Assembly (NCBI GenBank): GCA_037129835.1
Contig: JBAXUE010000003.1
Location: 87,275 to 151,274 of the forward strand
Direction: 5' to 3'
Source: a bacterium
Lineage (GTDB): Bacteria; Patescibacteriota; CPR2; UBA1875; CAIMLA01
Length of the DNA: 64,000 bases
Under the pieces are notes generated by a model. That model was not told the origin of the DNA. It saw nothing but the letters and a program-made list of their open reading frames with translations, and did no database searches. A program made the position numbers and the translations under genes. Shown here one piece after another: positions 1 to 27,585 of this stretch (positions are counted from its first letter, which is position 1; each line of letters begins with the position of its first letter).

Positions 1-23
1 GAGACGAGGCTGCACAGGCACTA

Positions 24-350
24 GTGGTGTCTGAAAACAAGGGTCTTTCAGAACAAAGCTTTATGCAAGAAAAAAGGGCTCGCCTTGATAGGCGTCTTGA
101 TATCCTTAGCCAATTAATTAATCCTAGCGATAGCGGACAGTCGGTCGATGAATTGTTAAAAATAGTGCGCACTTTACACAGGGGAACAAAAAGCGAAGTA
201 ACTTTAGATGGTGGTAAATATATTGAAATTGTACAAGATTATGAAGATCTAGAGGGCTTTTTACTGCAATTTAATGATTCAAATAAAATCGAATCATATC
301 GACAAGACAATTTTTCATACAGAAATTGGTTAGAAAGTGGTGAAGTATAA
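24..350 (+). CDS. hypothetical protein; the frame is open back to window position 1, so it may be 5'-truncated
   Basis: ORF with a GTG at 24 and no upstream in-frame stop to the window edge. No recognisable motif. Confidence 0.4.
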   Translation: MVSENKGLSEQSFMQEKRARLDRRLDILSQLINPSDSGQSVDELLKIVRTLHRGTKSEVTLDGGKYIEIVQDYEDLEGFLLQFNDSNKIESYRQDNFSYRNWLESGEV

Positions 351-457
351 ACTTAATTGAGGTTTTCGCGGATAACCGTTTTTTGATGATTGGTAAGCTG
401 GGTAGTATTTTCTGGCACTTTCCTCCGTTGAATATTTGATTAACAGGATTATATAAC

Positions 458-751
458 ATGGATTATACAAAGTTTATTAATAAAATCGAAGGTGAAAACA
501 GGGGAGATTTCTTGCTATTTACACTTTCAACGTGTATTTGGTGTCGTAAAACCAAGTCCTTTCTTGATAGTTTAGGGGTAGAATATGGCTATATTGATGT
601 TGACCTAGTAGATGGCGATGAAGGGGAGATGGTAATGTTGGAGATGCATAAATACAATCCCAAAACCTCTTTCCCTACGATCGTGGTTAATAAGGGCGAA
701 AAGGTTATTCTTGGTTTTGAGGAAGATCAAATTCGCGAAAGTCTTAAATAA
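458..751 (+). CDS. glutaredoxin-like / thioredoxin-fold protein (CxxC)
   Basis: Contains CIWC (CxxC), a downstream cis-Pro-like FPTI and a GF motif; ~97 aa, the usual Grx/NrdH size. Its stop overlaps the start of the next gene (taATGa). Confidence 0.65.
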   Translation: MDYTKFINKIEGENRGDFLLFTLSTCIWCRKTKSFLDSLGVEYGYIDVDLVDGDEGEMVMLEMHKYNPKTSFPTIVVNKGEKVILGFEEDQIRESLK

Positions 752-1260
752 TGATCGAAAAAGAAAGAGTTAATGACCTTAGGGGTAAATTGGCAGAACT
801 CAATCAACGACGAGGGTACTATCTAAATCCAGACGTTGAATTTACTAAGGAATTACTAGAAAGTCTACTCGTTAACGAAGACCGGTATGGATATCAGGCT
901 TGCCCTTGTAGGCTGGCGACAGGTAAACGTGCTGAGGATTTGGATATTGTCTGCCCGTGCGATTATCGTGACGCCGATATAATTGATTACGGAGCTTGTT
1001 ACTGTGGGTTATACGTTTCAAAAGATATATATGAAGGTAAAAGCCGGCTTAAGCCAATACCAGAAAGAAGAAAGTTTAAGATAGAAGGGGTGATTATGGA
1101 ATCAAAAAAGGAATTTGATGTTGTAAAATTACCAGTATGGCGATGTACAGTTTGCGGTTATCTCTGTGCTAGAGAAAATCCACCAGAGATTTGCCCTATA
1201 TGTGGCGTCGCACACGATAGGTTCGAGAGGTTCGAGCGAAGCAAACATTGCCCGAAATAA
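751..1260 (+). CDS. ferredoxin-thioredoxin reductase catalytic-subunit-like domain fused to a C-terminal rubredoxin-like domain (FDR-like ferredoxin:disulfide reductase)
   Basis: Spacing ACPCR...(17 aa)...CPC...(13 aa)...CYC matches the CPC/CPC/CHC redox-active motif of the FTR catalytic chain. The C-terminus has CTVCGY...CPICG, a rubredoxin-type CxxCG...CPxCG pair. Confidence 0.7.
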   Translation: MIEKERVNDLRGKLAELNQRRGYYLNPDVEFTKELLESLLVNEDRYGYQACPCRLATGKRAEDLDIVCPCDYRDADIIDYGACYCGLYVSKDIYEGKSRLKPIPERRKFKIEGVIMESKKEFDVVKLPVWRCTVCGYLCARENPPEICPICGVAHDRFERFERSKHCPK

Positions 1261-1493
1261 AACTTGGAATATATCGAAATTATAAAGGGCATGACTACGA
1301 GGTGATGGGTGTGGGTACCAATACAGAAACACGAGAAATATTTGTGGTATACAAAATGCTATACGATTCAGAAGGCTATAAATGTGGTTCTATTTGGATG
1401 CGGCCTTTTGATATGTTTACTGGTAAAGTTACTATTGAAGGGAAAGAACAACAGCGCTTTAAATATATCGGGACTCAGAAGGAAGACAAATAA
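1248..1493 (+). CDS. DUF1653-family small protein
   Basis: 81 aa with YRNYKGHDYEV...ETREIFVVYKMLY, the signature of the DUF1653 family. It overlaps the previous gene by 13 nt in another frame. Confidence 0.55.
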   Translation: MPEIKLGIYRNYKGHDYEVMGVGTNTETREIFVVYKMLYDSEGYKCGSIWMRPFDMFTGKVTIEGKEQQRFKYIGTQKEDK

Positions 1494-1537
1494 CTTCAAA
1501 ATTTGTCTTGGATGAGCTATAATACCGCCACGGAGAA

Positions 1538-3295
1538 GTGGATTTGAATGAACTTGATGAAATAAAGAATCGGCTGGACATAGTCGAGTACATCGGAAAA
1601 TATGTTCCACTAAAGCAAGCTGGCAGGAACTGGAAAGGCCTGTGCCCTTTTCATAATGAGAAAACGGGCTCCTTTATGGTGAGTTCAGAAAAACAAATAT
1701 TTCATTGTTTTGGTTGTGGTGAAGGCGGGGATATCGTCACTTTTGCCGAAAAAATCGAAGGCATCGACTTTCAAACTGCCCTCAAAGAGCTTGCCGATAA
1801 GGCTGGAGTGAAATTACCAGACAATTATCAGGCCAAAAAAGAGCCAACAGATAAGCTTTTTGACATTAGTAAACAAGCTGCAGATATTTACGAAAAAGAA
1901 CTATATAAATCAGAAAATAAGAAGGTGTACCAATATTTGCTTGATAGAGGCATGACAAAAGAAACCATAAAAACTTTTAATCTCGGTTTCGCACCTGTTT
2001 CGGGCACAATAATAGTGAAAGACCTGGGCGAGCTCGGTTATATCCAAGAAGACTTGATAAAGGCCGGTGTCGCAAAAGAGAGAAACGGGCGACTTCTTGA
2101 CCAATTCTATAACCGCATTATTTTCCCTATTCGTAACGCGAGTGGTAAGATCGTTGCTTTTACGGCTCGTGTTCTTGACGATTCTTTGCCAAAATATATT
2201 AATACTCCAGAGACGCCGATATATCACAAGTCAGATATACTTTTTGGTTTTGATATGGCAAAAGAGCAGATTCGTAAGCAAGATCACATTATTATCGTCG
2301 AGGGTCAGATGGACGCTATTTTTTCTCACCAGGCAGGAGTAAATAACGTCGTCGCCTCTAGTGGGACCGCACTTACTGTGGCACAACTAGACATCATAAA
2401 GCGTTTTACCAAGAATATTAAAATTGCTTTTGATGTTGATATGGCAGGTCAGAATGCGACACGTCGAGCCATCGAGCTCGCCTGGGAGCGTGAATTCAAT
2501 ATCAAGGTGATTAGTGTGCCCGAAGGTAAGGACCCCGCTGACCTAGTAAAAAGTGACCCGAAGAAGTGGATTCAGGCTTGCAAAAAGGCTAAATATGTTG
2601 TAGACTATATTTTTGACAGCACCTTTGAAAAATACAACATAACGAATATTTTAGATAAAAAGCAAGCAACCAAAGAGTTACTTGTGATGATAAAAAAGCT
2701 ACCAGACCCAGTCGAAAGAGAGCACTATCTCAAATTATTAGCCGGTAAAGTAAATGTCAGTGAGCAAGCTTTGAGCGATGCCCTGACAAAAGTAAAAAAT
2801 ACTCCGGTAAAAACGACTTCTGGTGATAGCGAAAAGGCGACAATTTACAAATCGCCTACAAAAAACAAAGAAGAGCACACGTTGTCTATGTTGCTCCTCT
2901 CACCTAAATATTGCGAATTTTTCTTTAATAAATTGAACGTATCCGACTTTGAGGACGAAAAAGTCCGAGACATAGTCGTCACGATAGAAAAATATTACGC
3001 AAAAGAAGCCAAATTCGACACCAAGAAATGGCAAAAAAAATTGAATAAAGAAGAATCTGATTATGTCGATAGACTGGTTATGATTACTGAAGATGAGTTT
3101 TCTGAAGCTGATGAGGAGATACTTCTCGAAGAGACTTTTTATACCGTTGTTCGACTCAAAAAAGACGTTATCGAGCGCGAAAAACATGAGCTCAACAATA
3201 GATTAATGGTTGCAGAAAGGTCTGCCGACAAAAAAGAACAAGCAAAATTATTGCAAGAATTTCAAAAACTTATAGAAAAAGAAAGAAATATCTAA
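1538..3295 (+). CDS. dnaG: DNA primase DnaG
   Basis: N-terminal zinc-binding motif CPFHNEKTGSF...HCFGCGEGGD and the TOPRIM motif VEGQMDAIF. It lies directly upstream of rpoD (the conserved dnaG-rpoD arrangement). GTG start. Confidence 0.9.
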   Translation: MDLNELDEIKNRLDIVEYIGKYVPLKQAGRNWKGLCPFHNEKTGSFMVSSEKQIFHCFGCGEGGDIVTFAEKIEGIDFQTALKELADKAGVKLPDNYQAKKEPTDKLFDISKQAADIYEKELYKSENKKVYQYLLDRGMTKETIKTFNLGFAPVSGTIIVKDLGELGYIQEDLIKAGVAKERNGRLLDQFYNRIIFPIRNASGKIVAFTARVLDDSLPKYINTPETPIYHKSDILFGFDMAKEQIRKQDHIIIVEGQMDAIFSHQAGVNNVVASSGTALTVAQLDIIKRFTKNIKIAFDVDMAGQNATRRAIELAWEREFNIKVISVPEGKDPADLVKSDPKKWIQACKKAKYVVDYIFDSTFEKYNITNILDKKQATKELLVMIKKLPDPVEREHYLKLLAGKVNVSEQALSDALTKVKNTPVKTTSGDSEKATIYKSPTKNKEEHTLSMLLLSPKYCEFFFNKLNVSDFEDEKVRDIVVTIEKYYAKEAKFDTKKWQKKLNKEESDYVDRLVMITEDEFSEADEEILLEETFYTVVRLKKDVIEREKHELNNRLMVAERSADKKEQAKLLQEFQKLIEKERNI

Positions 3296-3365
3296 GCAGT
3301 AAATATCCAATATTACCAAAAAAACATAAGAAAATAAGTATTTACGAATATTTAAAGGAGCAAAA

Positions 3366-4445
3366 TTGGCTAAAGAAAAAGATTTTGGGAAAATAGTAGA
3401 AGCACTAGTTACTAAGGGGCGTGAACAAGGTTTCGTCACACAAGAAGAAATTTTGGGAAAGTTTCCAGAAGTTGAAGAAAACGTAGAGAAGCTCGATGAA
3501 CTTTATGCAACACTTTCCGAACAGGGCATCGAAGTCGTCGATAATAGAGAAAAAATGATCTGGGGTGAGGATGACGAAGACCCAGCTGCTGTTGAAACAT
3601 TTGATGATATTTCAGAGCTTGCCGATGACTCAGTCAGAATGTATCTACGCGAAATCGGCAAAATACCGCTTTTAACCCAAGCCGAAGAAGTAGATTTGGC
3701 TAAAAAAATATTAAAAGGTGATAAGCAAGCAAAAAAGAAACTCGCAGAAGCAAATATGAGACTAGTAGTTTCGATTGCTAAGAAATATATCGGTAGAGGT
3801 CTGGATCTTCTCGATCTTATTCAAGAAGGAAATACTGGCCTTCTTCGTGCTGTAGTTAAGTTTGATTATACCAAGGGCTTTAAGTTCTCAACTTATGCGA
3901 CTTGGTGGATCCGTCAGGCTATTACTCGTGCCATTGCCGACCAAGCTAGGACTATTCGTATTCCAGTGCATATGGTAGAAACCATTAACAAACTTATCCG
4001 AACTCAGAGAAGATTACTTCAAGAGCTTGGGCGTGAGCCGCTTCCTGAAGAAATTGCTCTAGAAATGGGGATTGAGACAGAAAAAGTAAACTACATCCTA
4101 AAGATTAAAGAAGATACTGTTTCTATTGAAGCACCTGTTGGTGAAGAAGAAGACAGTAGGCTTGCGGACTTTATCGAGGATCGTGATTCGGTCACTCCCG
4201 ATGAGGCTGCTACCTACCAACTTCTGAAAGAGAATATTGCTGATGTTCTGCAGCTTCTTACTCCGCGAGAGCAAAAGATTTTACGTATGAGGTTTGGTCT
4301 TGATGATGGCCGTTCTCACACTCTTGAGGAAACAGGGCAAGAGTTTGGCGTTACTCGTGAACGTATCAGGCAGATCGAGTCAAAGGCACTACAAAAGCTT
4401 AAGAAACATCGTGAAAGCAAAAAACTACGAGATTATTTGTACTAA
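3366..4445 (+). CDS. rpoD: RNA polymerase sigma-70 factor RpoD
   Basis: Region 2 [19 protein letters not shown]...[20 protein letters not shown] and the region 4 HTH. TTG start with an aaaggag RBS. Confidence 0.95.
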
Positions 4446-4449
4446 TAAT

Positions 4450-4473
4450 AAGCCCCATTAGGGGCTTATTTCT
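4450..4473 (+). terminator. rho-independent terminator-like hairpin after rpoD
   Basis: aagccccattaggggctt followed by a T-rich run, immediately after the rpoD stop. Confidence 0.6.
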
Positions 4474-4487
4474 GCTATAATATACCT

Positions 4488-7286
4488 ATGAAAAGACCAA
4501 AATTTGTACTTATAGATGGTCATGCATTAATTCACCGAGCATATCATGCCATCCCACCACTCACCACCAAAAAAGGTGAGATAGTGAACGCTGTATATGG
4601 TTTTACGATGATTGTGTTAAACGTTTTACGTGATCTGAAGCCAGACTACATAGCGGTGGCGATGGATCTTCCTGGAAAAACTTTCCGTCACCATGATTTC
4701 GCGGACTATAAAGCCACAAGGAAGAAAGCGGATGATGACCTGGTAGCACAGTTTCCCCGTGTTTATGATGTTATTAATGCCTTAAATATCCCAATTTATG
4801 AACAAAAAGGCTTCGAAGCAGATGATATTATCGGATCGGCAGCAGAAAAGCTTAAAAACGACTACGAAGTGTACGTTGTTACTGGCGATCTTGATGAATT
4901 GCAACTCGTCGATGACCACGTCCACATCTACACAATGAAACGAGGATTTTCGGATATCTTTATCTATGATAAAGCAGCAGTAATGGAAAGATATGGTCTA
5001 ACTCCAGAAGAATTCGTCATTTTAAAGGCTCTCAAGGGCGATACTTCTGACAATATTCCAGGCGTCGCAGGCATCGGAGAAAAAACTGCTATCGATCTCG
5101 CATCAAAATACAAAAGTTTAGACGATTTATATGACAATTTGTATGAAATAAAGTCCTCAATTGCAAAGAAACTAGAAGACGGCAAAGAAAGTGCTTATCT
5201 CAGCTTGCATCTTTCAACAATAGTTCGTGATATCCCACTCGATATTTGCGAAGATGATTGTAAAACGCACCAATTTGACCGAGATAAAGCATTGGAATTA
5301 TTTCGTGAACTTGAGTTTAAATCATTATTAACTAGATTGCCAGTGAATAAGGACGATAAGGATATGGATTCCCGCCTACGCGGGAATGACAAGGGGGAGG
5401 GTAAGGATGACAAATATGATAATAATGGCAACATGGTAGTGAGTGAAAGCCGAGACCATTATACCAAAGAAAATTATATTCTCATTAATAATGAAGCAGA
5501 ACTAGTAAATCTAGCTAGTAAATTGTCGGCTCAGAAAATTATCGCTGTCGATACAGAGACAGATTCATTGGATACTATCTCTGCAAATCTGGTAGGAATA
5601 TCGTTTTCTTTTGAAGAAGGTAAGGCATATTATATTGCGATACTTGGTCTAGGTGGAGATACACTATCAAAGGAAACCGTTATAAGGCACTTGGATCCGA
5701 TACTTCGAGATCCGAAGGTTTCTAAAGTCGGCCATAATATCAAGTTTGATTACGAAGTACTTTTTGCAAACGGGTTTAGTTTTGAAGGTATCGTTTTTGA
5801 TACTATGGTGGCGGCATATCTGATTAATCCTAATGCAAGAGCTCAAAGATTAGACGAGCTAGCTTTCACTGAGCTTGGTATCGAGATGACGAAAATCGAT
5901 GAACTGATAGGAAAAGGTAAAGAGGAGATAACTTTTGATAAAGTGGACATCAATTCAGCTGCACTTTATGCCGCCGAAGATGCTGACATTACTTTACGCT
6001 TATACCATCATCTGCAGACAGATTTAGCAGAAGGCGGCTTCAATGAACTGATGGGCAAAATAGAGGCACCACTGATAACTGTTTTGGCTCGTGTGGAAAT
6101 GAATGGAGTAAAAATAGATTTGCCTTTGCTTTCTGATTTGTCTAAATCTTTTGGTTTAAGAATAGAAAAGCTGCAAACAGAGATTTACAAATTGGCTGGT
6201 GAAGAATTCAATATTGCCTCGCCTCTTCAAATGCAAAAAGTGCTTTATGACAACCTGGACCTTAGAAATAAAATACCATTTCCAAAAGACATAAAGAAAT
6301 TACCATCTGGCGGTTACTCGACAGGAGCAGAGCAACTGGAAAAGCTACGAGATTCTGGTCACCCAATAATAGAAAAAATTTTAGAATATAGAGAGCTTGC
6401 AAAACTAAAGAGTACGTATATCGACTCCCTGCCGAAGCTTGTTAGCTCTAAAACTGGACGGATTCACACTAGCTTTAACCAAGCTATTGTGGCAACGGGC
6501 AGACTTTCTTCTACAAATCCAAATCTCCAGAATATTCCTATTCGCACAGAGACAGGCATGCAGATACGCAAAGCATTTATTGCAGATCCCGGAAACAAAA
6601 TATTATCTGCAGATTACTCCCAGATAGAGCTACGAATTATTGCTCATATGTCAGGTGACACTGAAATGATAAAAGCCTTTAATGATGGCATAGATATCCA
6701 TACGGCGACAGCTGCCAAAGTATTTGCAGTCGATGAAAAAGATGTGACCAAAGAGATGCGTCGTACAGCGAAGATCGTGAATTTCGGAATCGTATATGGA
6801 GTTTCTGCCCATGGGCTACAGCGCCAAAGCAATCTTGAGTATGCAAGTGCTAAAGATTTTATTGATAAATATTTCGAAACATACAAAGGCGTTAAGCTTT
6901 ATCTAGACGCAGCTGTAAAAATAGCAAAAGAAAGAGGTTTCGCCGAAACTTTATTTGGGCGCAGACGGTATTTACCAGAGCTAAATAGTTCGAATTTCGC
7001 GGTTCGCGGCTCTGCAGAACGTATGGCTGCGAATATGCCGATTCAAGGGACAGCCGCAGATCTTATCAAACTTGCGATGATAGAAATAGACAAAGATTTA
7101 ACTACGTTTAGCCCTAAAACTAGGCTACTTCTTACGGTTCACGACGAGCTTGTTTTCGAAATTCCAGAAGACGAGGTCCAAAAAGTACAAGACTTTGTAA
7201 AGAAAAAGATGGAAAATGTAGTCAAGCTAGACGTGCCTGTAGTAGTAGACATCGGAGTAGGCGATAACTGGGGAGAAGCGAAATGA
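4488..7286 (+). CDS. polA: DNA polymerase I (5'-3' exonuclease + 3'-5' exonuclease + polymerase domains)
   Basis: N-terminal FEN-like domain, a 3'-5' exonuclease domain (AVDTETDSL...YAAEDAD) and the pol A motifs (RRTAKIVNFGIVYG; TVHDELVFE). It carries an in-frame palindromic element at 5366-5390. Confidence 0.95.
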   Translation: MKRPKFVLIDGHALIHRAYHAIPPLTTKKGEIVNAVYGFTMIVLNVLRDLKPDYIAVAMDLPGKTFRHHDFADYKATRKKADDDLVAQFPRVYDVINALNIPIYEQKGFEADDIIGSAAEKLKNDYEVYVVTGDLDELQLVDDHVHIYTMKRGFSDIFIYDKAAVMERYGLTPEEFVILKALKGDTSDNIPGVAGIGEKTAIDLASKYKSLDDLYDNLYEIKSSIAKKLEDGKESAYLSLHLSTIVRDIPLDICEDDCKTHQFDRDKALELFRELEFKSLLTRLPVNKDDKDMDSRLRGNDKGEGKDDKYDNNGNMVVSESRDHYTKENYILINNEAELVNLASKLSAQKIIAVDTETDSLDTISANLVGISFSFEEGKAYYIAILGLGGDTLSKETVIRHLDPILRDPKVSKVGHNIKFDYEVLFANGFSFEGIVFDTMVAAYLINPNARAQRLDELAFTELGIEMTKIDELIGKGKEEITFDKVDINSAALYAAEDADITLRLYHHLQTDLAEGGFNELMGKIEAPLITVLARVEMNGVKIDLPLLSDLSKSFGLRIEKLQTEIYKLAGEEFNIASPLQMQKVLYDNLDLRNKIPFPKDIKKLPSGGYSTGAEQLEKLRDSGHPIIEKILEYRELAKLKSTYIDSLPKLVSSKTGRIHTSFNQAIVATGRLSSTNPNLQNIPIRTETGMQIRKAFIADPGNKILSADYSQIELRIIAHMSGDTEMIKAFNDGIDIHTATAAKVFAVDEKDVTKEMRRTAKIVNFGIVYGVSAHGLQRQSNLEYASAKDFIDKYFETYKGVKLYLDAAVKIAKERGFAETLFGRRRYLPELNSSNFAVRGSAERMAANMPIQGTAADLIKLAMIEIDKDLTTFSPKTRLLLTVHDELVFEIPEDEVQKVQDFVKKKMENVVKLDVPVVVDIGVGDNWGEAK
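5366..5390. repeat. GC-rich palindromic hairpin element inserted in-frame in the polA inter-domain linker
   Basis: ggattcccgc-ctac-gcgggaatgac is a perfect 9-bp inverted repeat, nearly identical to the intergenic copy at 53425-53448. The antisense pseudo-ORF 5195-5434 reads SFPRRRESI. Confidence 0.7.
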
Positions 7287-7804
7287 AAACATGGCATAAG
7301 ATTGGCTTCGTAATTTCGACCCTGCTAACATTGGCAAGCTGGGCTATAGCACTATATTATTGGGACAAGCTACCTAGTGTGATACCAACGCATTTTGGAT
7401 TCAATGGACCAGCTAATGGTTGGAGCAACAAATCAATATTTTATGTATTCATGATACCTTTTATACAAAGTCTGATGCTAGCTTGTTTCGGCTTTTTGTA
7501 CTGGAAACCACAGTTTTCTGACATGCCAACTACTTTGTGGCTTATGACTATGGGAGAAACAAAACGCGTACACGCCTTTGACCTCATTCGCACTATGTTA
7601 GTGGTAATCGGATTGTGGGTCGGGGTGCTCCTTACATATATTACTTACGGAATGAATATCTCGGCTTTAGATAATAGTATGGGTCTTAATACGTGGCTGC
7701 TCATGACGATAATAGTATTAATGATTATTTGGTTAATCTGGTGGACAGCAAAGGTGTATAAAGCAACTAAGGCTGCTATTGGGGATAATAAAACTGAGAA
7801 ATAA
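7283..7804 (+). CDS. DUF1648-type integral membrane protein
   Basis: Four predicted TM helices; the N-terminus WAIALYYWDKLPSVIPTHFGFNG resembles the DUF1648/SdpI-like pattern. Its start overlaps the polA stop. Confidence 0.45.
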   Translation: MKTWHKIGFVISTLLTLASWAIALYYWDKLPSVIPTHFGFNGPANGWSNKSIFYVFMIPFIQSLMLACFGFLYWKPQFSDMPTTLWLMTMGETKRVHAFDLIRTMLVVIGLWVGVLLTYITYGMNISALDNSMGLNTWLLMTIIVLMIIWLIWWTAKVYKATKAAIGDNKTEK

Positions 7805-8925
7805 TGAATATATATATTCACATTCCTTTTTGTCATTCAAAGTGCGCTTATTGCGCATTTTTGAGTCATTGCGATGTTCAGAAGGAAGACGAGTATGTGG
7901 ATGCGCTATGTGAAGAAATCAAAACTCGACTCTCTGAATATTTTTCTAGAGAGCAAGGCGACTTGGGAAGTAGTTATCGGCTACGTTCGAACAACAGAGT
8001 GGAGACAGTATACTTTGGTGGCGGAACGCCGAGTTTACTAAAAAAATGTAATATTAGTAAAATTATTCAAACACTAAATAGTTGTGTAGTTTTCGGAAAA
8101 GATATAGAAATCACGCTAGAATGCAACCCAGAAGATATAACAAAAGCTAATCTTATTAGCTGGAAGGAATCCGGAGTAAATCGTCTTAGTATAGGTGTGC
8201 AAACGCTTAATAATGACGCTAGAAGTATTGTTGGCAGAGAACTAACTTCAAACGAGACGATAAATCGAATAGTTTTGACACAAAAATATTTTACAAATAT
8301 CGGAATTGATATAATTTCTGGATTGCCAGGAGAAAGTACCGAAAGTCTGCTGGGAGGAATAGAAATTATCAGTAATTTAGGCATCGATCACATCTCATTT
8401 TATGACCTGGAAATAAATCAGGGCTCACAATTGTCAAAAACACCGCAGAAGTTTACTCTACTAGTGGAAGACACTAGGGCAGATATGCTAATAGCGGGTT
8501 GGCAGAAACTTTCAAATTTGGGCTACAAACAGTATGAAATATCGAATTTTACCAGCAATAAGCATAATTGTCGACATAATCTCGATTTTTGGAAAGGTAG
8601 AGACTATCATGGTTTTGGGCTCGGCGCTACATCAAGGCTTGGAAACCAAATATTAACGAATACGACAGATTTTGAGCTATATTTATTGGGTAATATGTCT
8701 GAACGAGCAGACACCCTCTCCGCTTATGAGATAAATAGAATGAATTTATTGTCGGCGATGCGCCTTCTCACAACATTTAAGAAGGAATACCGTAAATTGT
8801 TGGGTTCAAAAGCCTTACCGCAAGACTTGATAGATGCAAAATATATTACTACGGACTTTCGGCTGACTCCCGCTGGCAAGCTAGTGTATAATCTAATCGT
8901 AAATAGGTTGGTATTAGATGAATAA
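7804..8925 (+). CDS. hemW: radical SAM heme chaperone HemW / HemN-like protein
   Basis: N-terminal radical-SAM cluster motif CHSKCAYCAF, YFGGGTPS and the HemN C-terminal domain. Confidence 0.8.
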   Translation: MNIYIHIPFCHSKCAYCAFLSHCDVQKEDEYVDALCEEIKTRLSEYFSREQGDLGSSYRLRSNNRVETVYFGGGTPSLLKKCNISKIIQTLNSCVVFGKDIEITLECNPEDITKANLISWKESGVNRLSIGVQTLNNDARSIVGRELTSNETINRIVLTQKYFTNIGIDIISGLPGESTESLLGGIEIISNLGIDHISFYDLEINQGSQLSKTPQKFTLLVEDTRADMLIAGWQKLSNLGYKQYEISNFTSNKHNCRHNLDFWKGRDYHGFGLGATSRLGNQILTNTTDFELYLLGNMSERADTLSAYEINRMNLLSAMRLLTTFKKEYRKLLGSKALPQDLIDAKYITTDFRLTPAGKLVYNLIVNRLVLDE

Positions 8926-9682
8926 AAAAATATTAGTTTTATGTTTATATATATTCTCAGTGATAGTGGGCGGAGCAATAATAGGGATTGCTAGATATCA
9001 ATATATAAATTCTGAAGTTTTAAATAACAAAGAAAGAGTTTCGGCGCCGATTGAAACAGCAAAAAATCCTACTGTTTCAATACAGCCCACGATTACTACG
9101 TTTATAGAAAAATCCTTACCGGCGAGCGCAGATATAACAGTTCCATATGCGGCTCAAGCACCATTCTCAAACTGGGCAGTTCACGAAGAGTCTTGTGAAG
9201 AGGCCGCGCTACTTATGTATCATGAGTTTCTGGTCGGGACCACATACCCGGCGAATAAAATACCAGATGCCATGGACGACACCACACTCCGCGATATGAA
9301 GTCTTGGCAAATTAAGAACTATGGTTCTGAGGCAGATCTATCTATGGACACTTTGGGAAAGTTCGCTGCAAATTATTATGGCTTAAAGCCAGTTGTAAAG
9401 AAGGATATTGGTGAAGCAGATATTAAAAGGGCTCTTGCGACAGGTTCTCCAGTTCTCGTTCCTGTGATGACTCATTCGCTTCAAAATAGTATGTATGGGC
9501 CTTATACGGTATATCACATCTTACTTATCAAGGGCTATGACGCTGCAGGGGTAATTACCAACGATGCCGGCGTTGGTAATGGTGTAAACAAACACTATTC
9601 ATGGGATATTCTCTGGCAGGCTATTGATGCTCAAACAGCCAAAATGAACCAGAGTAGAACTATGCTGATATTATCAAAATAG
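8918..9682 (+). CDS. membrane-anchored papain-like (C39-like) peptidase-domain protein
   Basis: N-terminal TM helix, then YAAQAPFSNW...ESCEEAALLM (candidate catalytic Cys) and a later His (VYHILLIKGYD), as in Peptidase_C39_2-type domains. Confidence 0.4.
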   Translation: MNKKILVLCLYIFSVIVGGAIIGIARYQYINSEVLNNKERVSAPIETAKNPTVSIQPTITTFIEKSLPASADITVPYAAQAPFSNWAVHEESCEEAALLMYHEFLVGTTYPANKIPDAMDDTTLRDMKSWQIKNYGSEADLSMDTLGKFAANYYGLKPVVKKDIGEADIKRALATGSPVLVPVMTHSLQNSMYGPYTVYHILLIKGYDAAGVITNDAGVGNGVNKHYSWDILWQAIDAQTAKMNQSRTMLILSK

Positions 9683-9765
9683 AACACTAAAACTGTATAC
9701 TAAACAAAACTCTTGACATGTGGATAACTCTAGGTATACACTATTGGTATACAAAAGGAGGCACA

Positions 9766-10398
9766 GTGAAAGCATTAACAACAAAACAAAAGACAGTTCT
9801 CGGTTGGATAGAAGATTCTGTCCAAAAAACTGGCCAAGCCCCGACGGTTCGTGAGCTACAAGAGAGGCTTGGTTGCTCATCCCCTATGGGTGCGGTATCT
9901 CATCTTAACGCTCTTGAGGCAAAAGGATATATTACCAAAGTTGATGGCAAGGCAAGAGGTTTAATACTTAATACCGGCGATGATATCAAATCAAATGATG
10001 ATATCATACAAGTTCCGCTAGTTGGTAATGTAGCCTGCGGTATGCCTATCTGGGCTGAGGAAATGGTAGAAGAGATTATCCCCCTACCCAAGGCATTTGT
10101 ACATTATACTTCAGATGTTTTTATGCTACGTGCCCAAGGCGATTCTATGAATATGGGCGGAATCGATGATGGCGACTACGTAATCTTTCATAAACAAAAC
10201 AGTGCTGACGAGGGAGATAAAGTAGTTGTCCTGATGGGTAGTGAGGCAACAGTTAAAAAATATCGAATAGAAAAAGACAAAAAACGAGTGGTTTTCCAAC
10301 CCATGAGTGATAATCCTAATCATGCACCGATTATACCCGAGCTTGGCACATTTATGATTCAAGGTAAGGTTATCGGCGTAGTAAAGAATAATTTCTAA
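9766..10398 (+). CDS. lexA: LexA repressor (start refined to the GTG at 9766, behind an aaggagg RBS)
   Basis: Winged-helix N-terminus (TVRELQERLG...SHLNALEAKGYI) and an S24 peptidase C-terminus with the Ser in AQGDSM and a Lys in the KKY motif. Confidence 0.85.
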   Translation: MKALTTKQKTVLGWIEDSVQKTGQAPTVRELQERLGCSSPMGAVSHLNALEAKGYITKVDGKARGLILNTGDDIKSNDDIIQVPLVGNVACGMPIWAEEMVEEIIPLPKAFVHYTSDVFMLRAQGDSMNMGGIDDGDYVIFHKQNSADEGDKVVVLMGSEATVKKYRIEKDKKRVVFQPMSDNPNHAPIIPELGTFMIQGKVIGVVKNNF

Positions 10399-10402
10399 GA
10401 TT

Positions 10403-10768
10403 ATGGAAAAATTTCACGCACTCGTAATTATAAATAGTTTGACTAAGGCAGAAATATTTTCTGATTATAAATTATTAAGCAAGAAAACTGACGGAAGTTG
10501 GTTAATTTTTAAACTAGAACTAAATAATGATAACATTGATAGATTTATCAAAGATATTCAGAGGAATCTAAAAGAAGACCAGGGCTGGTATACACATCTC
10601 TACAATCAAGATGGAAGTAAATTGATAATTATCTTTAAGAACAAAGTCTTCCATACAAATTCATTAAGAGATAATTGGCAAGATGCTATAAAATATGGCG
10701 TATCTATTAGAATCCCAATAGAGCAGCTTGATTTTCGTCCAAATAACTTTGAAAACGAAAAATATTAG
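10403..10768 (+). CDS. hypothetical protein
   Basis: 121-aa ORF tightly packed between lexA and the next gene. No recognisable motif. Confidence 0.4.
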   Translation: MEKFHALVIINSLTKAEIFSDYKLLSKKTDGSWLIFKLELNNDNIDRFIKDIQRNLKEDQGWYTHLYNQDGSKLIIIFKNKVFHTNSLRDNWQDAIKYGVSIRIPIEQLDFRPNNFENEKY

Positions 10769-10780
10769 GGGGATTTATAA

Positions 10781-11191
10781 ATGAACAAAAAAATTTCATG
10801 TAAGCCAATAACTCAAGAAGATCCATTCGGTTGCGGGGTAGCTTGTACTGCACTCTTGTTAGATCAATCTTATCAAGAAACAATAAAAATGTTTAATATC
10901 AAAAAAATTGAGAATTATGGTTGCGATTGCCCCGATATATCAAAAGTTCTGAATAAGAACGGACTGGCATATAAATGGAAAAAATATACAACAGGTTTGA
11001 TACCAAGCTTTTCTGTAGTCTACCTTGGGCCAAATGACTATTACCAGGTCGGTCATTGGCTTGTCAAGTACAATGATACTTGGATGAATCCATGGGTTTC
11101 TGGCAAGACCATAAAAGAAGCTGAAGCAGGGATGGTAAATAATTTATTAGGCAAAATAACATATATAGTTTACCCATATAATAAAGAATAA
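10781..11191 (+). CDS. small papain-like (C39-like) peptidase-domain protein
   Basis: DPFGCGVACTALLL (Cys) ... QVGHWLVKY (His), the spacing typical of C39/BtrH-type cysteine peptidases. Confidence 0.4.
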   Translation: MNKKISCKPITQEDPFGCGVACTALLLDQSYQETIKMFNIKKIENYGCDCPDISKVLNKNGLAYKWKKYTTGLIPSFSVVYLGPNDYYQVGHWLVKYNDTWMNPWVSGKTIKEAEAGMVNNLLGKITYIVYPYNKE

Positions 11192-11200
11192 GGAGAAAAG

Positions 11201-12223
11201 ATGACAACCAAAGAAACAAAAGCTGAGAAACAGGCAAGCAATACGGAGAGAATGGACAATATACAGACAGCAGTAGACGCGATAGAAAAACAATTCGGTA
11301 AAGGCTCGATTATGAAGCTTGGAGAGGCTGGTAACTGCCACGTTGAAACAATTTCTACAGGTTCGCTATCACTGGATCTAGCACTCGGAGGCGGAGTGCC
11401 TAAAGGAAGAATTATCGAAATATACGGACCTGAGTCTTCTGGCAAAACCACCTTAGCTTATCATGTAGTAGCGGAAGCTCAGAGAAATGGCGGTATTGCT
11501 GCCTTTATCGACGCAGAGCATGCTCTGGATCCTGATTATGCTAAAAATATTGGAGTTGATATCGATAAACTCTTAATTTCGCAACCAGATACTGGCGAGC
11601 AGGCCTTAGAAATTGCCGAAACCCTGGTCCGATCCAATTCTATTGATGTTTTGGTTATAGACTCAGTCGCAGCACTAGTACCGCGAGCTGAAATAGAAGG
11701 TGATATGGGCGACTCCCATATGGGCCTTCAGGCAAGATTGATGTCTCAAGCTTTAAGAAAAATGACTGGAGCTATATCTAAATCAAATACCGTCGTAATA
11801 TTTATTAACCAAATACGTATGAAAATAGGAGTTATGTTTGGCAATCCAGAGACGACTTCTGGTGGACAGGCCTTGAAGTTTTTTTCTTCTGTAAGAATGG
11901 ACATACGCCGTAGTGAGCAGCTAAAAGATGGTGACAACGTTATCGGCAACCGTGTAAAAGTCAAAGTTGTAAAAAATAAAGTAGCACCGCCATTCAGAGT
12001 TGCCGAGTTTGATATTATGTACAACGAGGGAATAGCTAGAACTGGCGAGATTATAGACTTGGGGGTAAAGTACGGTTTGGTTGGAAAGGCAGGGTCCTGG
12101 TATGAATATAAAGAAGAAAAAATCGGACAAGGCCGTGAAGCAGCGAAGCAGTATTTAAAAGATAACCCGAAAATATGTTCCGAAATTGAAAAGCAAGTCA
12201 GAATAGCAGCTGTTTCAAAGTAG
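11201..12223 (+). CDS. recA: recombinase RecA
   Basis: Walker [11 protein letters not shown], the [14 protein letters not shown] motif and the L2 loop. Strong RBS aaggagaaaag. Confidence 0.97.
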
Positions 12224-12240
12224 ATACGGAGTCTCATAAA

Positions 12241-12855
12241 ATGAAGATAACATCGCTTGAGCCACAGGCTCATACGAAAAACCGCTTTAATATGTATGTG
12301 GATGGTAAATTTCATTCAGGTTTGCTAATTTCTACTGCGGCTTCTTTGGGACTTTATGAGAATAAAGAGGTAACGGCCTTTGAGATAGCTAATATTGACG
12401 TAGAAGAAGAATATCAGAAGTGTATGACTTCTGCCTTGCTATTAGCATCTAGAAGAATGCAATCTGAAAAAGAATATTGGCAAAAACTTGGAAGGCGCTA
12501 TGACAAGGCAGTAATTGGTACCTGCTTAGATAGATTGCGAGTACTTGGTTATGCAGACGACAAGCATTTTGCAGAGATGTGGGTAAGAGAAAGATCTCTT
12601 AACCGAGGAGTGGTGTTATTGAGGCAGGAGCTGACTCAAAAAGGAGTAGACAAACATATCGTTGAAGATTGTTTGGGCGATATTGCAGACGATTTTACTA
12701 TAGAAAGTGCTAAGTCATTGGCTTTGCGAAGATATAAACCGCAAATCGCCAGAAAAGAAAATTTTGCAAAAATAGTCGGATATTTGAACCGCCGAGGTTA
12801 TAGTTACGATACGGCAAAATCTGTATTTAATATAATTGATAAGACCACTGACTAG
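12241..12855 (+). CDS. recX: RecA regulator RecX
   Basis: Immediately downstream of recA; three-helix-repeat architecture and basic character typical of RecX. Confidence 0.7.
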   Translation: MKITSLEPQAHTKNRFNMYVDGKFHSGLLISTAASLGLYENKEVTAFEIANIDVEEEYQKCMTSALLLASRRMQSEKEYWQKLGRRYDKAVIGTCLDRLRVLGYADDKHFAEMWVRERSLNRGVVLLRQELTQKGVDKHIVEDCLGDIADDFTIESAKSLALRRYKPQIARKENFAKIVGYLNRRGYSYDTAKSVFNIIDKTTD

Positions 12856-12868
12856 CAGTGGTCTTATC
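12838..12868 (+). terminator. terminator hairpin at the recX stop
   Basis: gataagaccactg-acta-gcagtggtcttatc is a perfect 13-bp stem overlapping the stop codon. Confidence 0.6.
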
Positions 12869-13172
12869 GTGTGCTTCCGCGATATTATTGATTTTGAATG
12901 CTGAGCACCTTGTAGGTAAACGCAAACGCGGCTCCCCACATGAGTAATGGTAACATCCTACCTCCTCTACGCATTTCAGCGTGTTAGTATTATAGGCTCA
13001 GGAGCCCTATTTGTCAATCGATTTATCCTGTTAAATTCATACTAAAAGCCTTAGCAAAGGGAAAATAGATTTGTGCATAACTTCTCAAATTAAACATTAT
13101 TTATAATCTTATCCTTTACAACACTCTTATCTTGTGCTAAAATCTGATAGCAAATAAGAAGGATTTAGGTCA

Positions 13173-13541
13173 ATGCCAATCACAAAATCAGCCATTAAGG
13201 CAATGAAACAAAGCCGTAAGGCGAACGATCGTAATAAAGTAGTTAAGGCAGATTATAAAGCTAAGGTCAAGGCTGTCAAAAAAGAATCAGCCGGTGACTC
13301 AAAAAATCTAGGCAAGCTAGCTTCTCTTGCGGTTCAGTCTTTAGACAAAGCTGCTAAAAACGGAGTTATCCATAAAAGAACCGCGGCAAGAAAGAAATCC
13401 AGGCTTGCTAAGGCACTTGAGAGAACTACAGGTAAATCGATAGAGCTAAATTCTATTAAAGAGCCGGTTTCTCTAGCTAAACCAAAGGTTTCTGCAAAAT
13501 CAAAAACTACTCCCAAGAAAACTATAAAAAAAGAGGCTTAG
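13173..13541 (+). CDS. rpsT: 30S ribosomal protein S20 with a Lys/Ala-rich C-terminal extension
   Basis: ITKSAIKAMKQSRKANDRNK...KNGVIHKRTAARKKSRLAKAL matches S20. It is 122 aa against ~87 typical, because of the basic tail. Confidence 0.85.
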   Translation: MPITKSAIKAMKQSRKANDRNKVVKADYKAKVKAVKKESAGDSKNLGKLASLAVQSLDKAAKNGVIHKRTAARKKSRLAKALERTTGKSIELNSIKEPVSLAKPKVSAKSKTTPKKTIKKEA

Positions 13542-14500
13542 GCCTCTTTTTTACTTAAACGAATTACCAGACGCTCTAGTAAAGTGGTAGGATCTCCAAA
13601 GCCTTGCTTTATCATCGAATCTGTTTTCAATACAGCTTCGTGCATAGTTAGTAATTGGGGCATAGTGAAATAACGAATTTGGCCAAGAGATTTTTGTACA
13701 ACGAACTGGTGAAGTTTAGTCCTAGATTGTATTTCGAATTCGTTTAATCTGTGTTCGTGGAGATCTCTCACCAATAATAAGTTGCGAACCTGCCCCCCTA
13801 TCATGCCAAGTATCCCAAGTGGCTCCTCGCCAATACTTAGAAGTTTTTCTAAATGATACAGCGCTTTTTTACTATTCTTACTCGATATTGCATCTGTGAG
13901 GTCAAAAATACGGTTAAAATACCCGGCGTCTACCAATAGATCCACGTTAATAGTTGAAATGTTGGGATTATAAGCTATAAGTTTATCTATTTCATTATTG
14001 ACTGAGTTTAGATCAGTGCCGCAGGCAAACTGTAGATTGCGGGCAGTAAGCTCGTCAATTGTACCGCTTTTTTCCAATACTCGTTTTTTTATATACGAGA
14101 CTATATCTGCGACACTCATTGGTTTAAATTCATGTATTTCGCCAAATTTACTAATATTTTTATATATTTTCAGTCTTTTGTCTGGTGTGTCATTATCTAT
14201 AATAACTATATCGGTAAAATCGGGAACATTTTCGAGCCATGTTGCAAAAGTGTCTAAAAAATTCTTATCCTTAGACTTAAAAACGCCTTCTAATACAATC
14301 ATTCGGCGGTCAGATAAGAAGGGTAACGATGATGCTTCTAAAATAATCTTTCCTACTTCGAAAGTATTCCGGTGAAAGGTGAGATTTATACTATCATTTA
14401 CGAAACCCAGTTTTTCCTTTAATCCAGAATAAAAACGGTCACGTCCATATTTGTCTTCTCCAAAAAGTAGATATATCATTATCTTTGGCACCTTGGGCAA
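13538..14500 (-). CDS. holA: DNA polymerase III delta subunit (HolA)
   Basis: N-terminal MIYLLFGEDKYGRD and overall delta-subunit clamp-loader architecture; ~320 aa. Confidence 0.7.
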   Translation of the reverse strand: MPKVPKIMIYLLFGEDKYGRDRFYSGLKEKLGFVNDSINLTFHRNTFEVGKIILEASSLPFLSDRRMIVLEGVFKSKDKNFLDTFATWLENVPDFTDIVIIDNDTPDKRLKIYKNISKFGEIHEFKPMSVADIVSYIKKRVLEKSGTIDELTARNLQFACGTDLNSVNNEIDKLIAYNPNISTINVDLLVDAGYFNRIFDLTDAISSKNSKKALYHLEKLLSIGEEPLGILGMIGGQVRNLLLVRDLHEHRLNEFEIQSRTKLHQFVVQKSLGQIRYFTMPQLLTMHEAVLKTDSMIKQGFGDPTTLLERLVIRLSKKEA

Positions 14501-15327
14501 TAGTGTGTACCCCTACCTGCTAGTTTTATTTTTTCGATTGTCCCACCGCAGTGGTATGGGCACATCTCGCCTTCTTTATGATAGACATTCAGATAATTTT
14601 GCATGCCACCCTTTTCTCCAAATACATTTAAATAATCACTGTCCGTTGTTCCGCCTTTCGATATTGAGAAGGCTAAGATATCAGATATATTAGTTGACAA
14701 CAAGTTCCATTCTGTCGGAGATACTTTTGATATCACTCTTTCGGGATTAATTTTACTTTTAAATAGAGCCTCATCAGCATAAATATTGCCCACCCCTGCT
14801 ATAACTCCTTGGTCCATGATAAACTTTTTTATTTGCGATTTTGGCGACCTCTTGGCCCGCTCTATAAGGTAGTTGGTATCTATTGATGGATACGCTTCAG
14901 GGCCGAATTTAGAAAAATAATTATTATATCCATCTTGATTCACTACCCTGCACCAGCCAAACTTTCTTAAATCATTAAAATATAATTTCTTATCTTTTCC
15001 AAAAGAGAAAATGACGCGGGTATGTTTACTAGGGAGTTTTTCGTGCCATTCGTGTGAAGCATGACCACCAGCAAGTCGGGTTCCATGGTTGATATATATA
15101 AGTTGACCAGTCATCTTGAGATGGATAAGCAAACATAGTTTGTTTTCGAAGGATATAATTATAGTCTTAGCTCGTCTCCCGACTGAAGAAATTTTAATAT
15201 TTGCAATCTTCCTTCCGTCGTCAGTAAATGAACCGTAATTAAGTACTTCAATATCGGTTATCTTTTCTCCCGAGATAACTTTGTTTAGTTGCTTTACAAT
15301 TGTTTCTACTTCAGGAAGTTCTGGCAT
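14479..15327 (-). CDS. mutM: formamidopyrimidine-DNA glycosylase (Fpg/MutM-Nei family)
   Basis: N-terminal MPELPEVE (catalytic Pro2/Glu3), an H2TH domain and a C-terminal zinc finger CPYHCG...CPRCQ. Confidence 0.9.
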   Translation of the reverse strand: MPELPEVETIVKQLNKVISGEKITDIEVLNYGSFTDDGRKIANIKISSVGRRAKTIIISFENKLCLLIHLKMTGQLIYINHGTRLAGGHASHEWHEKLPSKHTRVIFSFGKDKKLYFNDLRKFGWCRVVNQDGYNNYFSKFGPEAYPSIDTNYLIERAKRSPKSQIKKFIMDQGVIAGVGNIYADEALFKSKINPERVISKVSPTEWNLLSTNISDILAFSISKGGTTDSDYLNVFGEKGGMQNYLNVYHKEGEMCPYHCGGTIEKIKLAGRGTHYCPRCQR

Positions 15328-15352
15328 AGCATCTTTCTTACGTTTACGGGTA

Positions 15353-16207
15353 TTATTCCGTAATTTGTTTTGCAGATTCGCTTTTTATTTCTTTTTCCAT
15401 CCTTCTATGGGACGGGAATTTTATAATCTCTGCTTGTTTTTTTCTGGGTCCAAAAACAATAGTTCTTATTAAGATACGAAAACCTTTTGGCCACATAAAA
15501 AAAGCGTATCTGAAAATACCATTAAGTTCCCATTTGTCATTCATGGATTGAGTTTGTGAATCTAAAATAGCTTCTTTTAAGTCACTTGCTGTTTGGCCTT
15601 CAAAAATTGTGAAGCCTTTTCCTATAGATTCTAAAATATGGGCATCACTTCCGCCAACTTCAGCTTCGAAAAGAAGTAACTGATTAATGTACTTGGCTTT
15701 TAGATTTTCTTGTTCATAGGTAGGGATTCCGTTAACTGTTTCAATACCATCGAGGCCGTTTTTTTCCTTAATTAAACCGGCCGCACCGATCCCTTTAGCC
15801 GCGTAGACCTTATTACTGTTAAACCTAGTGGTGAGAAACGGGTGAGCTGCGATGGCAATTCCGCCTTGTTTGTGGATATTCTTAATTACTTCATGGGCTG
15901 GCTGCAAAGGTTCTATTTTTTCATTTATATAAAGTGCAAGGATGTGACCTTCATTTGATGATACTTCTTCCCCCACAACTAGGTCAAAACGATATTTTTT
16001 TTTCGCCATTAATTCTTTGGCATATATGGCACCATTGATTGTATCATGGTCAGTTATAGCGATAACGCAAAAGTCTGTTTCGTTTTCGACATATTCTAAT
16101 ATTTCTTCTATTGACGGTTTTCCATCCGAGAAGTTGCTGTGTATATGGAGATCAGCTTTACCAAGATGAGGAAACTGCTTGTGAATCTGTTTTTTAAATC
16201 TAACCAT
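15353..16207 (-). CDS. PHP-domain metal-dependent phosphoesterase (TrpH/YciV-like)
   Basis: DLHIHSNFSDG...ITDHD...AHP motif series of the PHP family. Confidence 0.8.
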   Translation of the reverse strand: MVRFKKQIHKQFPHLGKADLHIHSNFSDGKPSIEEILEYVENETDFCVIAITDHDTINGAIYAKELMAKKKYRFDLVVGEEVSSNEGHILALYINEKIEPLQPAHEVIKNIHKQGGIAIAAHPFLTTRFNSNKVYAAKGIGAAGLIKEKNGLDGIETVNGIPTYEQENLKAKYINQLLLFEAEVGGSDAHILESIGKGFTIFEGQTASDLKEAILDSQTQSMNDKWELNGIFRYAFFMWPKGFRILIRTIVFGPRKKQAEIIKFPSHRRMEKEIKSESAKQITE

Positions 16208-16234
16208 ATGTAGATTATAGCATTTTATACTCGC

Positions 16235-16933
16235 TTAAAAAATACTGATTGCTACGAAAATGTCGGCAATAACGTGTGTTACTATGGCCGGCAGCAAACT
16301 TTTGTATTTTTTTGTCATGTAACCCCAAGCCAAACCAAGGAAAAAGGTTAGTCCTACGAAAAGCCAAAGATTACTGCTCATGGGGTTAAAAACATGAATA
16401 AGCGCGAAGGCAGTGGCTTGAAAGAAGTTAGCGAACCAAAAACCATATTTTCTAGTGAACATCTCGAGACCGATACCTCGAAAAAAAACTTCTTCTACAA
16501 AGGCATTACTAACTGCGTATAAAATAAATATAGGAAAGTTGGTTAGATAAAAAATCAGGGTGAAAGAGGCGCTTTTTAAAAAGAAGGGGTATAGAATTAC
16601 ACCAAGAATCGTAAAAATAAAGGTTCCCCAAAAAGTAAAAAGAAAGAGATTTTTGTTATTTTTGAAACCTAAGTATATGTCCTCTCCGTCCAAGCCTATA
16701 TTTTGCGAGAGAAAGAATATCAATGGTAATATCACGGCTACTCTGATGAGCCCCCACAATATAAGATAGCTAGGCTGTATCATTGACACGAGGTCTTGGT
16801 GGAAAACAAGCTTGCTCGCTGCCATACTGAGCGGATATTGTAATAATATGAGCAGATATATGATGGATAAAAAAATCCATCTAGTGTTATGAACGAGTAA
16901 ATTATTTTTGTGCGTTTTTTGAAGCATATTCAC
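16235..16933 (-). CDS. CPBP-family intramembrane metalloprotease (CAAX protease / Abi)
   Basis: Multi-TM protein with EEVFFRG and the downstream FxxxH / HxxxN motifs of the CPBP family. Confidence 0.8.
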   Translation of the reverse strand: MNMLQKTHKNNLLVHNTRWIFLSIIYLLILLQYPLSMAASKLVFHQDLVSMIQPSYLILWGLIRVAVILPLIFFLSQNIGLDGEDIYLGFKNNKNLFLFTFWGTFIFTILGVILYPFFLKSASFTLIFYLTNFPIFILYAVSNAFVEEVFFRGIGLEMFTRKYGFWFANFFQATAFALIHVFNPMSSNLWLFVGLTFFLGLAWGYMTKKYKSLLPAIVTHVIADIFVAISIF

Positions 16934-18137: not shown

Positions 18138-18139
18138 TA

Positions 18140-18640
18140 TTAACGATAGTTTCCGAATTGCAGAGGCATTTCTAGGTCGCTAGAGTTGAGTAACTGCATA
18201 ATTTCTTGTAGTTCATTTTTTGACTTGGATGAGACTCTAATTTCCTCACCTTGTATGGATGGCTTTGCTTTAGGAAATGAATCTCTGATATTTTTAGAGA
18301 TTTTTTTTGCATCCTCACTATTAAGTCCGCTTCTGAGGGTAATTTTTTTACGAATTGTGTTTCCTGTTGCGTTTTCTTCAGGTGTCGATTTATCCAAGAC
18401 TTTTAAACTAAGCTCTCTTTTAACCATTTTTGATTCGATAATATCAATGATCGATTGGAGCTTGTAATCACTTTCAGTATGAATGGTGATTAGATTTTCT
18501 TTTTCTGAATAGTCTATATCGGCAAGAACTCCTTTGAAGTCAAATCTCCCGATAATTTCCTTTTTACTTTGGTTAATTGCGTTTGCCATTTCTTGATGGT
18601 CGAAATCGCATGTTATATCAAATGAATAGTCGCTGGCCAT
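18140..18640 (-). CDS. yajQ: YajQ-family nucleotide-binding protein (UPF0234)
   Basis: SFDI...FDHQE...RFDFKGV N-terminal pattern and ~165-aa length typical of YajQ. Confidence 0.8.
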   Translation of the reverse strand: MASDYSFDITCDFDHQEMANAINQSKKEIIGRFDFKGVLADIDYSEKENLITIHTESDYKLQSIIDIIESKMVKRELSLKVLDKSTPEENATGNTIRKKITLRSGLNSEDAKKISKNIRDSFPKAKPSIQGEEIRVSSKSKNELQEIMQLLNSSDLEMPLQFGNYR

Positions 18641-18650
18641 AGTAAACTCC

Positions 18651-21724: not shown

Positions 21725-21836
21725 TTTATACCTTTAAAAACGAGTTTATTATAGCATTGTTTGTGTATAATATGAATATATAAATAAGGAGCTTCTCTAA
21801 TGACAGTATCCAAGATATTGTGTAAAATATATTTAT

Positions 21837-23556: not shown

Positions 23557-23640
23557 ACTATATTATAACAGTACTTCGTGTTAATATTTGCGAACCAGAA
23601 ATATTCTGGCCTGTTCCATGACAACTGATAGGAGGAAGCG

Positions 23641-24087: not shown

Positions 24088-24127
24088 TATCGCACCCCTT
24101 CTTCAATATTTAAGGTAGAATATACTT

Positions 24128-24949: not shown

Positions 24950-25023
24950 TTAAGTAACACCCACCATGAGGCTGAATCCGTCGATCGCCGGACAGGCTTC
25001 GGGTCGGGCAAGAAGGAAGAAAC

Positions 25024-25293: not shown

Positions 25294-25303
25294 TTAGCTA
25301 ATA

Positions 25304-27526: not shown

Positions 27527-27585
27527 TGGGTAGATAATAATATATCTTAAACGTATCTTACGTATTTAATTGCTAGCTTGAGAGT

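Follow-up and report, generated by a model that had tools for sequence, protein, structure and literature searches.

Archaea and bacteria contain Fe-S enzymes known as ferredoxin:disulfide reductases (FDRs), relatives of the catalytic chain of ferredoxin-thioredoxin reductase, FTRc (PMC6262447). The enzyme of Methanosarcina acetivorans, deposited as PDB entry 4TPU under the title ferredoxin-dependent disulfide reductase, is built from an FTR catalytic domain, a linker, and a rubredoxin-like domain, in that order. This FDR also reduces a thioredoxin, MaTrx5 (PMC6262447), and it is used by methanoredoxin (PMC6491703), a glutaredoxin (Grx)-like protein named for its coenzyme M-dependent insulin-reductase activity, with coenzyme M serving as a further reductant (PMC7278568). 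Both halves of such a module are held on a single 196-aa polypeptide in 7PWE, a crystallised glutaredoxin/ferredoxin disulfide reductase fusion from Desulfotalea psychrophila that has no rubredoxin domain. The classical FTR of plants and cyanobacteria (catalytic subunits 1DJ7, 2PVD, and 7BZK) pairs its catalytic subunit with a variable one, FTRV, in a heterodimer, and FTRV is exclusive to oxygenic phototrophs (PMC9025218); the catalytic subunit of this enzyme carries a CHC motif and no rubredoxin domain, and its substrate is thioredoxin.

The locus described here belongs to a CPR bacterium and lies on a 64-kb stretch of DNA (positions 1..64000), referred to throughout as the window. Two ORFs were read from the sequence of the + strand, at 458..751 and 751..1260, and the features assigned to them are as follows.

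458..751, + strand: gene for a predicted Grx-like (methanoredoxin-like) thiol-disulfide oxidoreductase, 97 aa (Pfam and PDB matches)
533..544, + strand: codons of the C26-I-W-C29 redox-active motif of the Grx-like protein (sequence)
749..753, + strand: TAATG stop/start overlap of the Grx-like and FDR genes (sequence)
751..1260, + strand: gene for a predicted ferredoxin:disulfide reductase (FDR), 169 aa (full-length match to 4TPU)
787..1041, + strand: FTR catalytic domain (putative [4Fe-4S] cluster and redox-active disulfide), FDR residues 13-97 (Pfam FeThRed_B)
1078..1116, + strand: predicted flexible linker, FDR residues 110-122 (AF2 pLDDT below 50, alignment)
1138..1227, + strand: rubredoxin-like, putative Fe(Cys)4 domain, FDR residues 130-159 (Pfam RUBY_RBDX)

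The stop codon of the Grx-like gene (TAA, 749-751) and the start codon of the FDR gene (ATG, 751-753) have one base, 751, in common. GC contents of 0.364 and 0.414 for the two genes compare with 0.395 across the window, and the window is syntenic with L001, a locus on the MAG of an uncultured Candidatus Saccharibacteria, over Grx (63% identity), FDR (69%), DnaG (68%), RpoD (92%), and PolA (87%). By this synteny, the host would be a relative of Saccharibacteria. Because gene GC is close to that of the window and the locus is syntenic with this MAG, there is no indication of recent horizontal transfer of the Grx/FDR genes. A promoter and terminator scan of positions 1..4600 returned 14 and 4 candidates, respectively, against 11.1 and 3.4 in shuffled sequences; at counts no different from shuffles, the scan leaves the transcription unit of the pair undefined.

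The initial annotation had read the 169-aa product as an FTR catalytic chain fused to a C-terminal rubredoxin, the architecture of the methanogen FDR, and had named an HMM search as the check that could overturn this reading. That search found the FTR catalytic domain decisively: residues 13-97 match FeThRed_B (PF02943) at E=8.7e-23 and 80.8 bits against a cut-off of 22, while residues 130-159 match the rubrerythrin-type rubredoxin-like family RUBY_RBDX (PF21349) at E=3e-14 and 52.6 bits against a cut-off of 26.5. The Pfam scores of both proteins of the pair are far beyond chance. Against all PDB sequences (phmmer), the best match is 4TPU, aligned full length over query residues 4-161 at E=1.2e-50, followed by 7PWE at E=1.1e-31. 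The window FDR thus follows the domain order of the M. acetivorans enzyme and has in common with it the motifs CPC, CPC, and CYC, the four rubredoxin cysteines, and an extra cysteine in CGYLCA. The two differ in that the linker of the window protein is shorter, its host is a CPR bacterium rather than a methanogen, coenzyme M chemistry probably plays no part here, and the window FDR is known from its sequence. NCBIfam gave sub-threshold matches only for the two proteins, to YruB-type Grx-like proteins, an FtrB double-selenoprotein family, and rubrerythrin.

The cysteine motifs of the FDR fall at CPC 51-53, CPC 68-70, CYC 83-85, CTVCG 132-136, and CPICG 148-152. In HMMER alignments, the pairs C51/C53, C68/C70, and C83/C85 coincide column by column with CPC/CPC/CHC of 7BZK, 2PVD, and 2PVG, and the same six cysteines align with those of 4TPU and 7PWE. 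Across an alignment of 54 homologues, C51, P52, C53, C68, P69, C70, C83, and C85 are invariant, as are C132, C135, C148, and C151 of the rubredoxin domain (54/54). A fifth cysteine of that domain, C139 (1165..1167, in CGYLCAR), lies outside the four canonical rubredoxin ligands; it too is invariant in 54/54 homologues and is present in 4TPU.

These six aligned cysteines, the catalytic fold, and the FeThRed_B match would also suit a classical FTR. The catalytic domain, however, matches classical FTRc at E=1e-4 to 2e-3 only, as against 1.3e-37 for 4TPU over the same domain; the FTR histidine is replaced by tyrosine, the protein has a rubredoxin domain attached, and the flanking genes encode Grx and DUF1653 rather than a variable subunit. 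FTRV, moreover, is confined to oxygenic phototrophs, as noted above. With neither CHC nor an FTRV partner at the flanking genes, the classical FTR is effectively refuted as an identity for this protein. The initial annotation had already remarked on CYC in the place of CHC, and the alignments agree; since 4TPU and 7PWE carry CYC too, the substitution is a feature of the family and not a defect. By its sequence, then, the 169-aa protein is of FDR type, its FTR catalytic domain being followed at the C terminus by a rubredoxin-like one, with putative cofactors in each.

The middle residue of this motif, Y84, is tyrosine in 46 of the 54 homologues and phenylalanine in the remaining 8, and CFC replaces CYC in 7 FDR ORFs of the 80 related loci described below. 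Prakash et al. in 2018 reportedly proposed a functional role for the tyrosine of CYC in FDR. Given phenylalanine at this position in 8/54 homologues, a catalytic role of Y84 is not universal, and if the tyrosine hydroxyl took over proton donation from the FTR histidine, the CFC variants would need another explanation.

An AF2 model of the FDR reached a mean pLDDT of 77.8, with the linker (residues 110-122) below 50; the alignment consensus is undefined over this segment, and homologues range from 160 to 218 aa in length. Foldseek ranked 4TPU first for the model (E=5.1e-14, probability 1.00, identity 43%), at a TM score of just 0.50 and a full-length superposition rmsd of 19.7 A, because the model leaves the interdomain orientation unpredicted. 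Taken domain by domain, the model superimposes on 7PWE over about 104 columns (rmsd about 3 A) and on rubrerythrin/rubredoxin domains over 36-38 columns (rmsd about 1 A); classical FTR and rubredoxin domains are likewise among its matches.

The 97-aa product of the upstream gene belongs to the Pfam Glutaredoxin family (PF00462, E=3.9e-11, 43.4 bits, cut-off 22.9), which bears out the earlier description of a CIWC Grx-like gene directly upstream of the FDR gene and overlapping it. Among solved structures it comes closest to two entries with the title 'Glutaredoxin', 3NZN at E=5.4e-25 and 5CAX at E=3.1e-23, which we take to be a Grx-like protein of M. mazei and the methanoredoxin of M. acetivorans, respectively. 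The alignment with these two spans residues 8-96, and the three proteins have in common STC-x-WC-KKTK, FPT (with the cis-Pro), and a C-terminal GF..IRE. The Methanosarcina proteins are of the same size as the window protein and differ from it in carrying CVWC where the latter has CIWC. A further match (E=1.6e-10) is the Grx half of the 7PWE fusion, the FTRc part of which contains CPC, CPC, and CYC as does the window FDR; in the window, by contrast, the two halves are encoded by two overlapping genes and a rubredoxin domain is added. Across 72 paired loci, conservation of LSTC.WC and FPT is 90% or more. A single-sequence AF2 model of the 97-aa protein was too poor to use (pLDDT 35.6; the Foldseek matches obtained from it are noise), and the Grx-like assignment therefore rests on sequence, by which the protein is the predicted glutaredoxin-like, methanoredoxin-type partner of FDR.

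The Grx/FDR module is widespread in anaerobic Bacteria and Archaea. At E<=1e-3, at least 7,984 FDR homologues were found among 8,000 scored candidates, the top-scoring of which are 160-218 aa long and contain both Pfam domains as in the window FDR; when sequences are clustered at 50%, 1,053 representatives match. A scan of one genome per species gave 222 relatives, and the best 80 of these 222 were taken as loci L001-L080 for comparison of gene neighbourhoods. Bacterial hosts among these best 80 are Saccharibacteria, Actinomycetota, Bacillota, Chloroflexota/Dehalococcoidia, Thermotogota, Caldisericota, WOR-3, Zixibacteria, Acidobacteria, and Armatimonadota, and the archaeal hosts include Methanomicrobiales/Methanoregula, Methanofastidiosum, Thermoplasmatota, Thermococci, and Altiarchaeia.

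A Grx-like homologue (E 1e-7 to 1e-41) lies immediately upstream of FDR on the same strand at 77 of these best 80 loci. Of the three exceptions, two lack upstream DNA, which leaves 77 of 78 testable genomes with the upstream gene. The sole locus with upstream DNA yet no Grx-like gene (L078:3990-4462, an Altiarchaeia MAG) has an in-frame TAA within the conserved RYGY motif of its FDR frame and is likely a pseudogene or an assembly error. C-x-W-C is present in 75/77 of the upstream homologues (CGWC 28, CVWC 21, CIWC 10, CQWC 10, CPWC 4, CAWC 2), and two of the 77 ORFs have no CxxC motif. An overlap of 1-8 nt between the Grx stop and a candidate start codon of FDR occurs at 71/77 loci: 4 nt at 50 loci, 1 nt at 15, and 8 nt at 6. 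These numbers, together with the fusions described below and with CPR homologues that already bear names in GenBank, contradict the initial annotation in one respect, namely that such wiring would be unusual for a non-photosynthetic bacterium: 'ferredoxin:glutaredoxin reductase' is the GenBank name of homologues from Jacksonbacteria/Parcubacteria (CPR) and WOR-3.

A census of neighbours at the 80 loci found no third conserved component beside Grx and FDR. Synteny beyond the pair is lineage specific only, with carbamoyl-phosphate synthase in Methanoregula, a ferritin/rubrerythrin-like protein at 6 loci, and a redoxin in Caldisericota. As no other neighbouring gene is conserved in the 80 loci, the pair is self-contained. 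The census also bears on the idea that the pair is a dedicated supply of reductant for an anaerobic (class III) ribonucleotide reductase, with the Grx-like protein acting in the manner of NrdH as reported for Methanosarcina barkeri. Weak similarity of the Grx-like protein to the NCBIfam NrdH model (E=2.5e-6) speaks for such a role; the score of 27.6 bits, however, is far under the cut-off of 85.75, the NrdD and NrdG families are absent from the recurrent neighbours of the 80 loci, and the 64-kb window contains neither a glycyl-radical motif (RV[CS]GY) nor a candidate of NrdD size. We consider this role unlikely.

All ten of the N-extended homologues tested (10/10) are Grx-FTRc fusions, of which one retains the rubredoxin domain and one has a MarR domain. 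Among the fusion architectures of the family, P0129 (256 aa) has Grx, FTRc, and rubredoxin on one chain; P0203 (341 aa) combines Grx and FTRc with a C-terminal MarR winged-helix domain and is possibly a ferredoxin- or disulfide-sensing transcription factor; P0235 (326 aa) is a further example. The distance matrices of FDR and Grx are correlated (Mantel r=0.74; none of 2000 permutations reached this value), which is no proof of physical interaction because co-inheritance alone would yield such a correlation.

A separate observation concerns four Chloroflexi/Dehalococcoidia loci (L059:3181-3786, L062:3514-4023, L073:1499-2020, and L075:3989-4498), in which the FDR gene contains an in-frame TGA. 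The codon falls on the second cysteine of CYC (ACY*GLYVS), and conserved sequence continues beyond it; from this reading of the frames, the TGA probably encodes selenocysteine in a C-Y-U variant. NCBIfam already has a model named 'FtrB family double-selenoprotein'.

Adjacency might also reflect no more than co-regulation, with a low-molecular-weight thiol reducing the Grx-like protein and FDR mainly reducing thioredoxin or a small-molecule disulfide. The naming of methanoredoxin after a coenzyme M-dependent activity and the reduction of MaTrx5 by FDR are both in keeping with this arrangement. To our knowledge, however, coenzyme M is not to be expected in this CPR bacterium; the recurrent covalent Grx-FTRc fusions point to direct coupling, overlapping adjacency is near-universal across phyla, the 64-kb window contains no thioredoxin, and methanoredoxin itself uses FDR. 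Mere co-regulation is accordingly judged quite improbable. Since the host presumably lacks coenzyme M, it is probably FDR, rather than a low-molecular-weight thiol, that the Grx-like protein of this bacterium relies on.

Returning to the coupling of the two proteins, we consider it very probable that the Grx and FDR genes encode a translationally coupled, ferredoxin-driven disulfide-reduction module of the kind that FDR and methanoredoxin make up in Methanosarcina. The initial annotation had likewise suggested a dedicated relay from ferredoxin to Grx, a proposal that gains support from adjacency in 77/78 testable genomes, recurrent fusions, and the use of FDR by methanoredoxin (PMC6491703). 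The present analysis contributes to such a relay the identity of the domains, the conservation of the metal-binding and redox cysteines, the adjacency and fusion of the two partners, and their joint inheritance. The donor, the loading of cofactors, the order of electron transfer, and the downstream targets are those that we infer for it in what follows.

A low-potential ferredoxin, encoded outside the window, would donate electrons one at a time to the Fe(Cys)4 centre that C132, C135, C148, and C151 form in the rubredoxin-like domain. From there, electrons would move to the [4Fe-4S] cluster. Alignment with FTR places the ligands of this cluster at C51, C68, C70, and C83, and places C53 and C85 as the redox-active disulfide; both assignments are our assumption, carried over from the residue roles of the Synechocystis FTR (Dai et al. 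2000, 2007). The cluster would adjoin the C53-C85 disulfide, with Y84 at the position of the FTR histidine, and two successive electrons would reduce this disulfide. C53 would then attack the C26-C29 disulfide of the Grx-like protein, which, once reduced, would serve the cell as its general reductant of protein disulfides. Because the M. acetivorans FDR reduces MaTrx5 too, the Grx-like protein may, by analogy, not be the sole acceptor of FDR. Motif searches of the 64-kb window for ferredoxin (CxxCxxCxxxCP), thioredoxin, peroxiredoxin, Msr, TrxR, and NrdD found none of these.

Downstream of the pair, an 81-aa DUF1653 gene (1248..1493, + strand; Pfam E=6.2e-20; PDB 3BE3, 'uncharacterized protein', E=5.5e-7) shares 13 nt with the 3′ end of FDR, and 44 nt separate its own end from dnaG. 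This gene is present on all contigs with an identical FDR (L081-L084) and absent at the syntenic Saccharibacteria locus and at all 80 related loci. A speculative extension would make the ferredoxin/FDR/Grx-like relay the main or sole disulfide-reducing system of this genome-reduced cell, operating without NADPH-thioredoxin reductase, glutathione, or coenzyme M, and would make the DUF1653 protein, whose gene overlaps FDR and precedes dnaG-rpoD, a third component or a client of the relay; we hold this to be unlikely.

Other features of the window lie apart from the pair. Upstream of the Grx gene, an ORF at 24..350 (+ strand) is cut by the start of the window; its counterpart at L083 is 183 aa long, has no Pfam match, and is preceded by a DUF3267 gene. 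A 3,177-aa ORF (42918..52451, + strand) contains fibronectin-III, Ig-like, and purple-acid-phosphatase-N-type beta-sandwich repeats and probably encodes a giant surface protein; the 559-aa protein encoded upstream of it (40898..42577) has no Pfam match. By Pfam, a type IV pilus cluster (55290..63359, + strand) encodes PilM, PilO, a PilB-type ATPase with MshEN, a PilT-type ATPase, PilC, and a prepilin peptidase, and includes a 162-aa ORF with a pilin-like N terminus (FTLAELMVV) and no Pfam match. Such a cluster suits a host related to Saccharibacteria. Across the whole window (1..64000), ARAGORN found neither a tRNA nor a tmRNA gene, and every Rfam family stayed below its gathering score.

Earlier work had already described this enzyme and its structure, the replacement of His by Tyr, the Grx-like partner, and the distribution in bacteria, and the locus is not a new kind of system; it adds one more correctly annotated FDR/Grx-like module, in a CPR genome. 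From the standpoint of comparative genomics, the Grx and FDR genes of anaerobic Bacteria and Archaea are almost always found together as one unit, coupled in translation and in some cases fused, which supports the transfer of the function 'ferredoxin:glutaredoxin-like protein reductase' to the bacterial homologues. Read from its sequence, the module would imply that thiol upkeep in this organism is driven by low-potential ferredoxin and not by NADPH.
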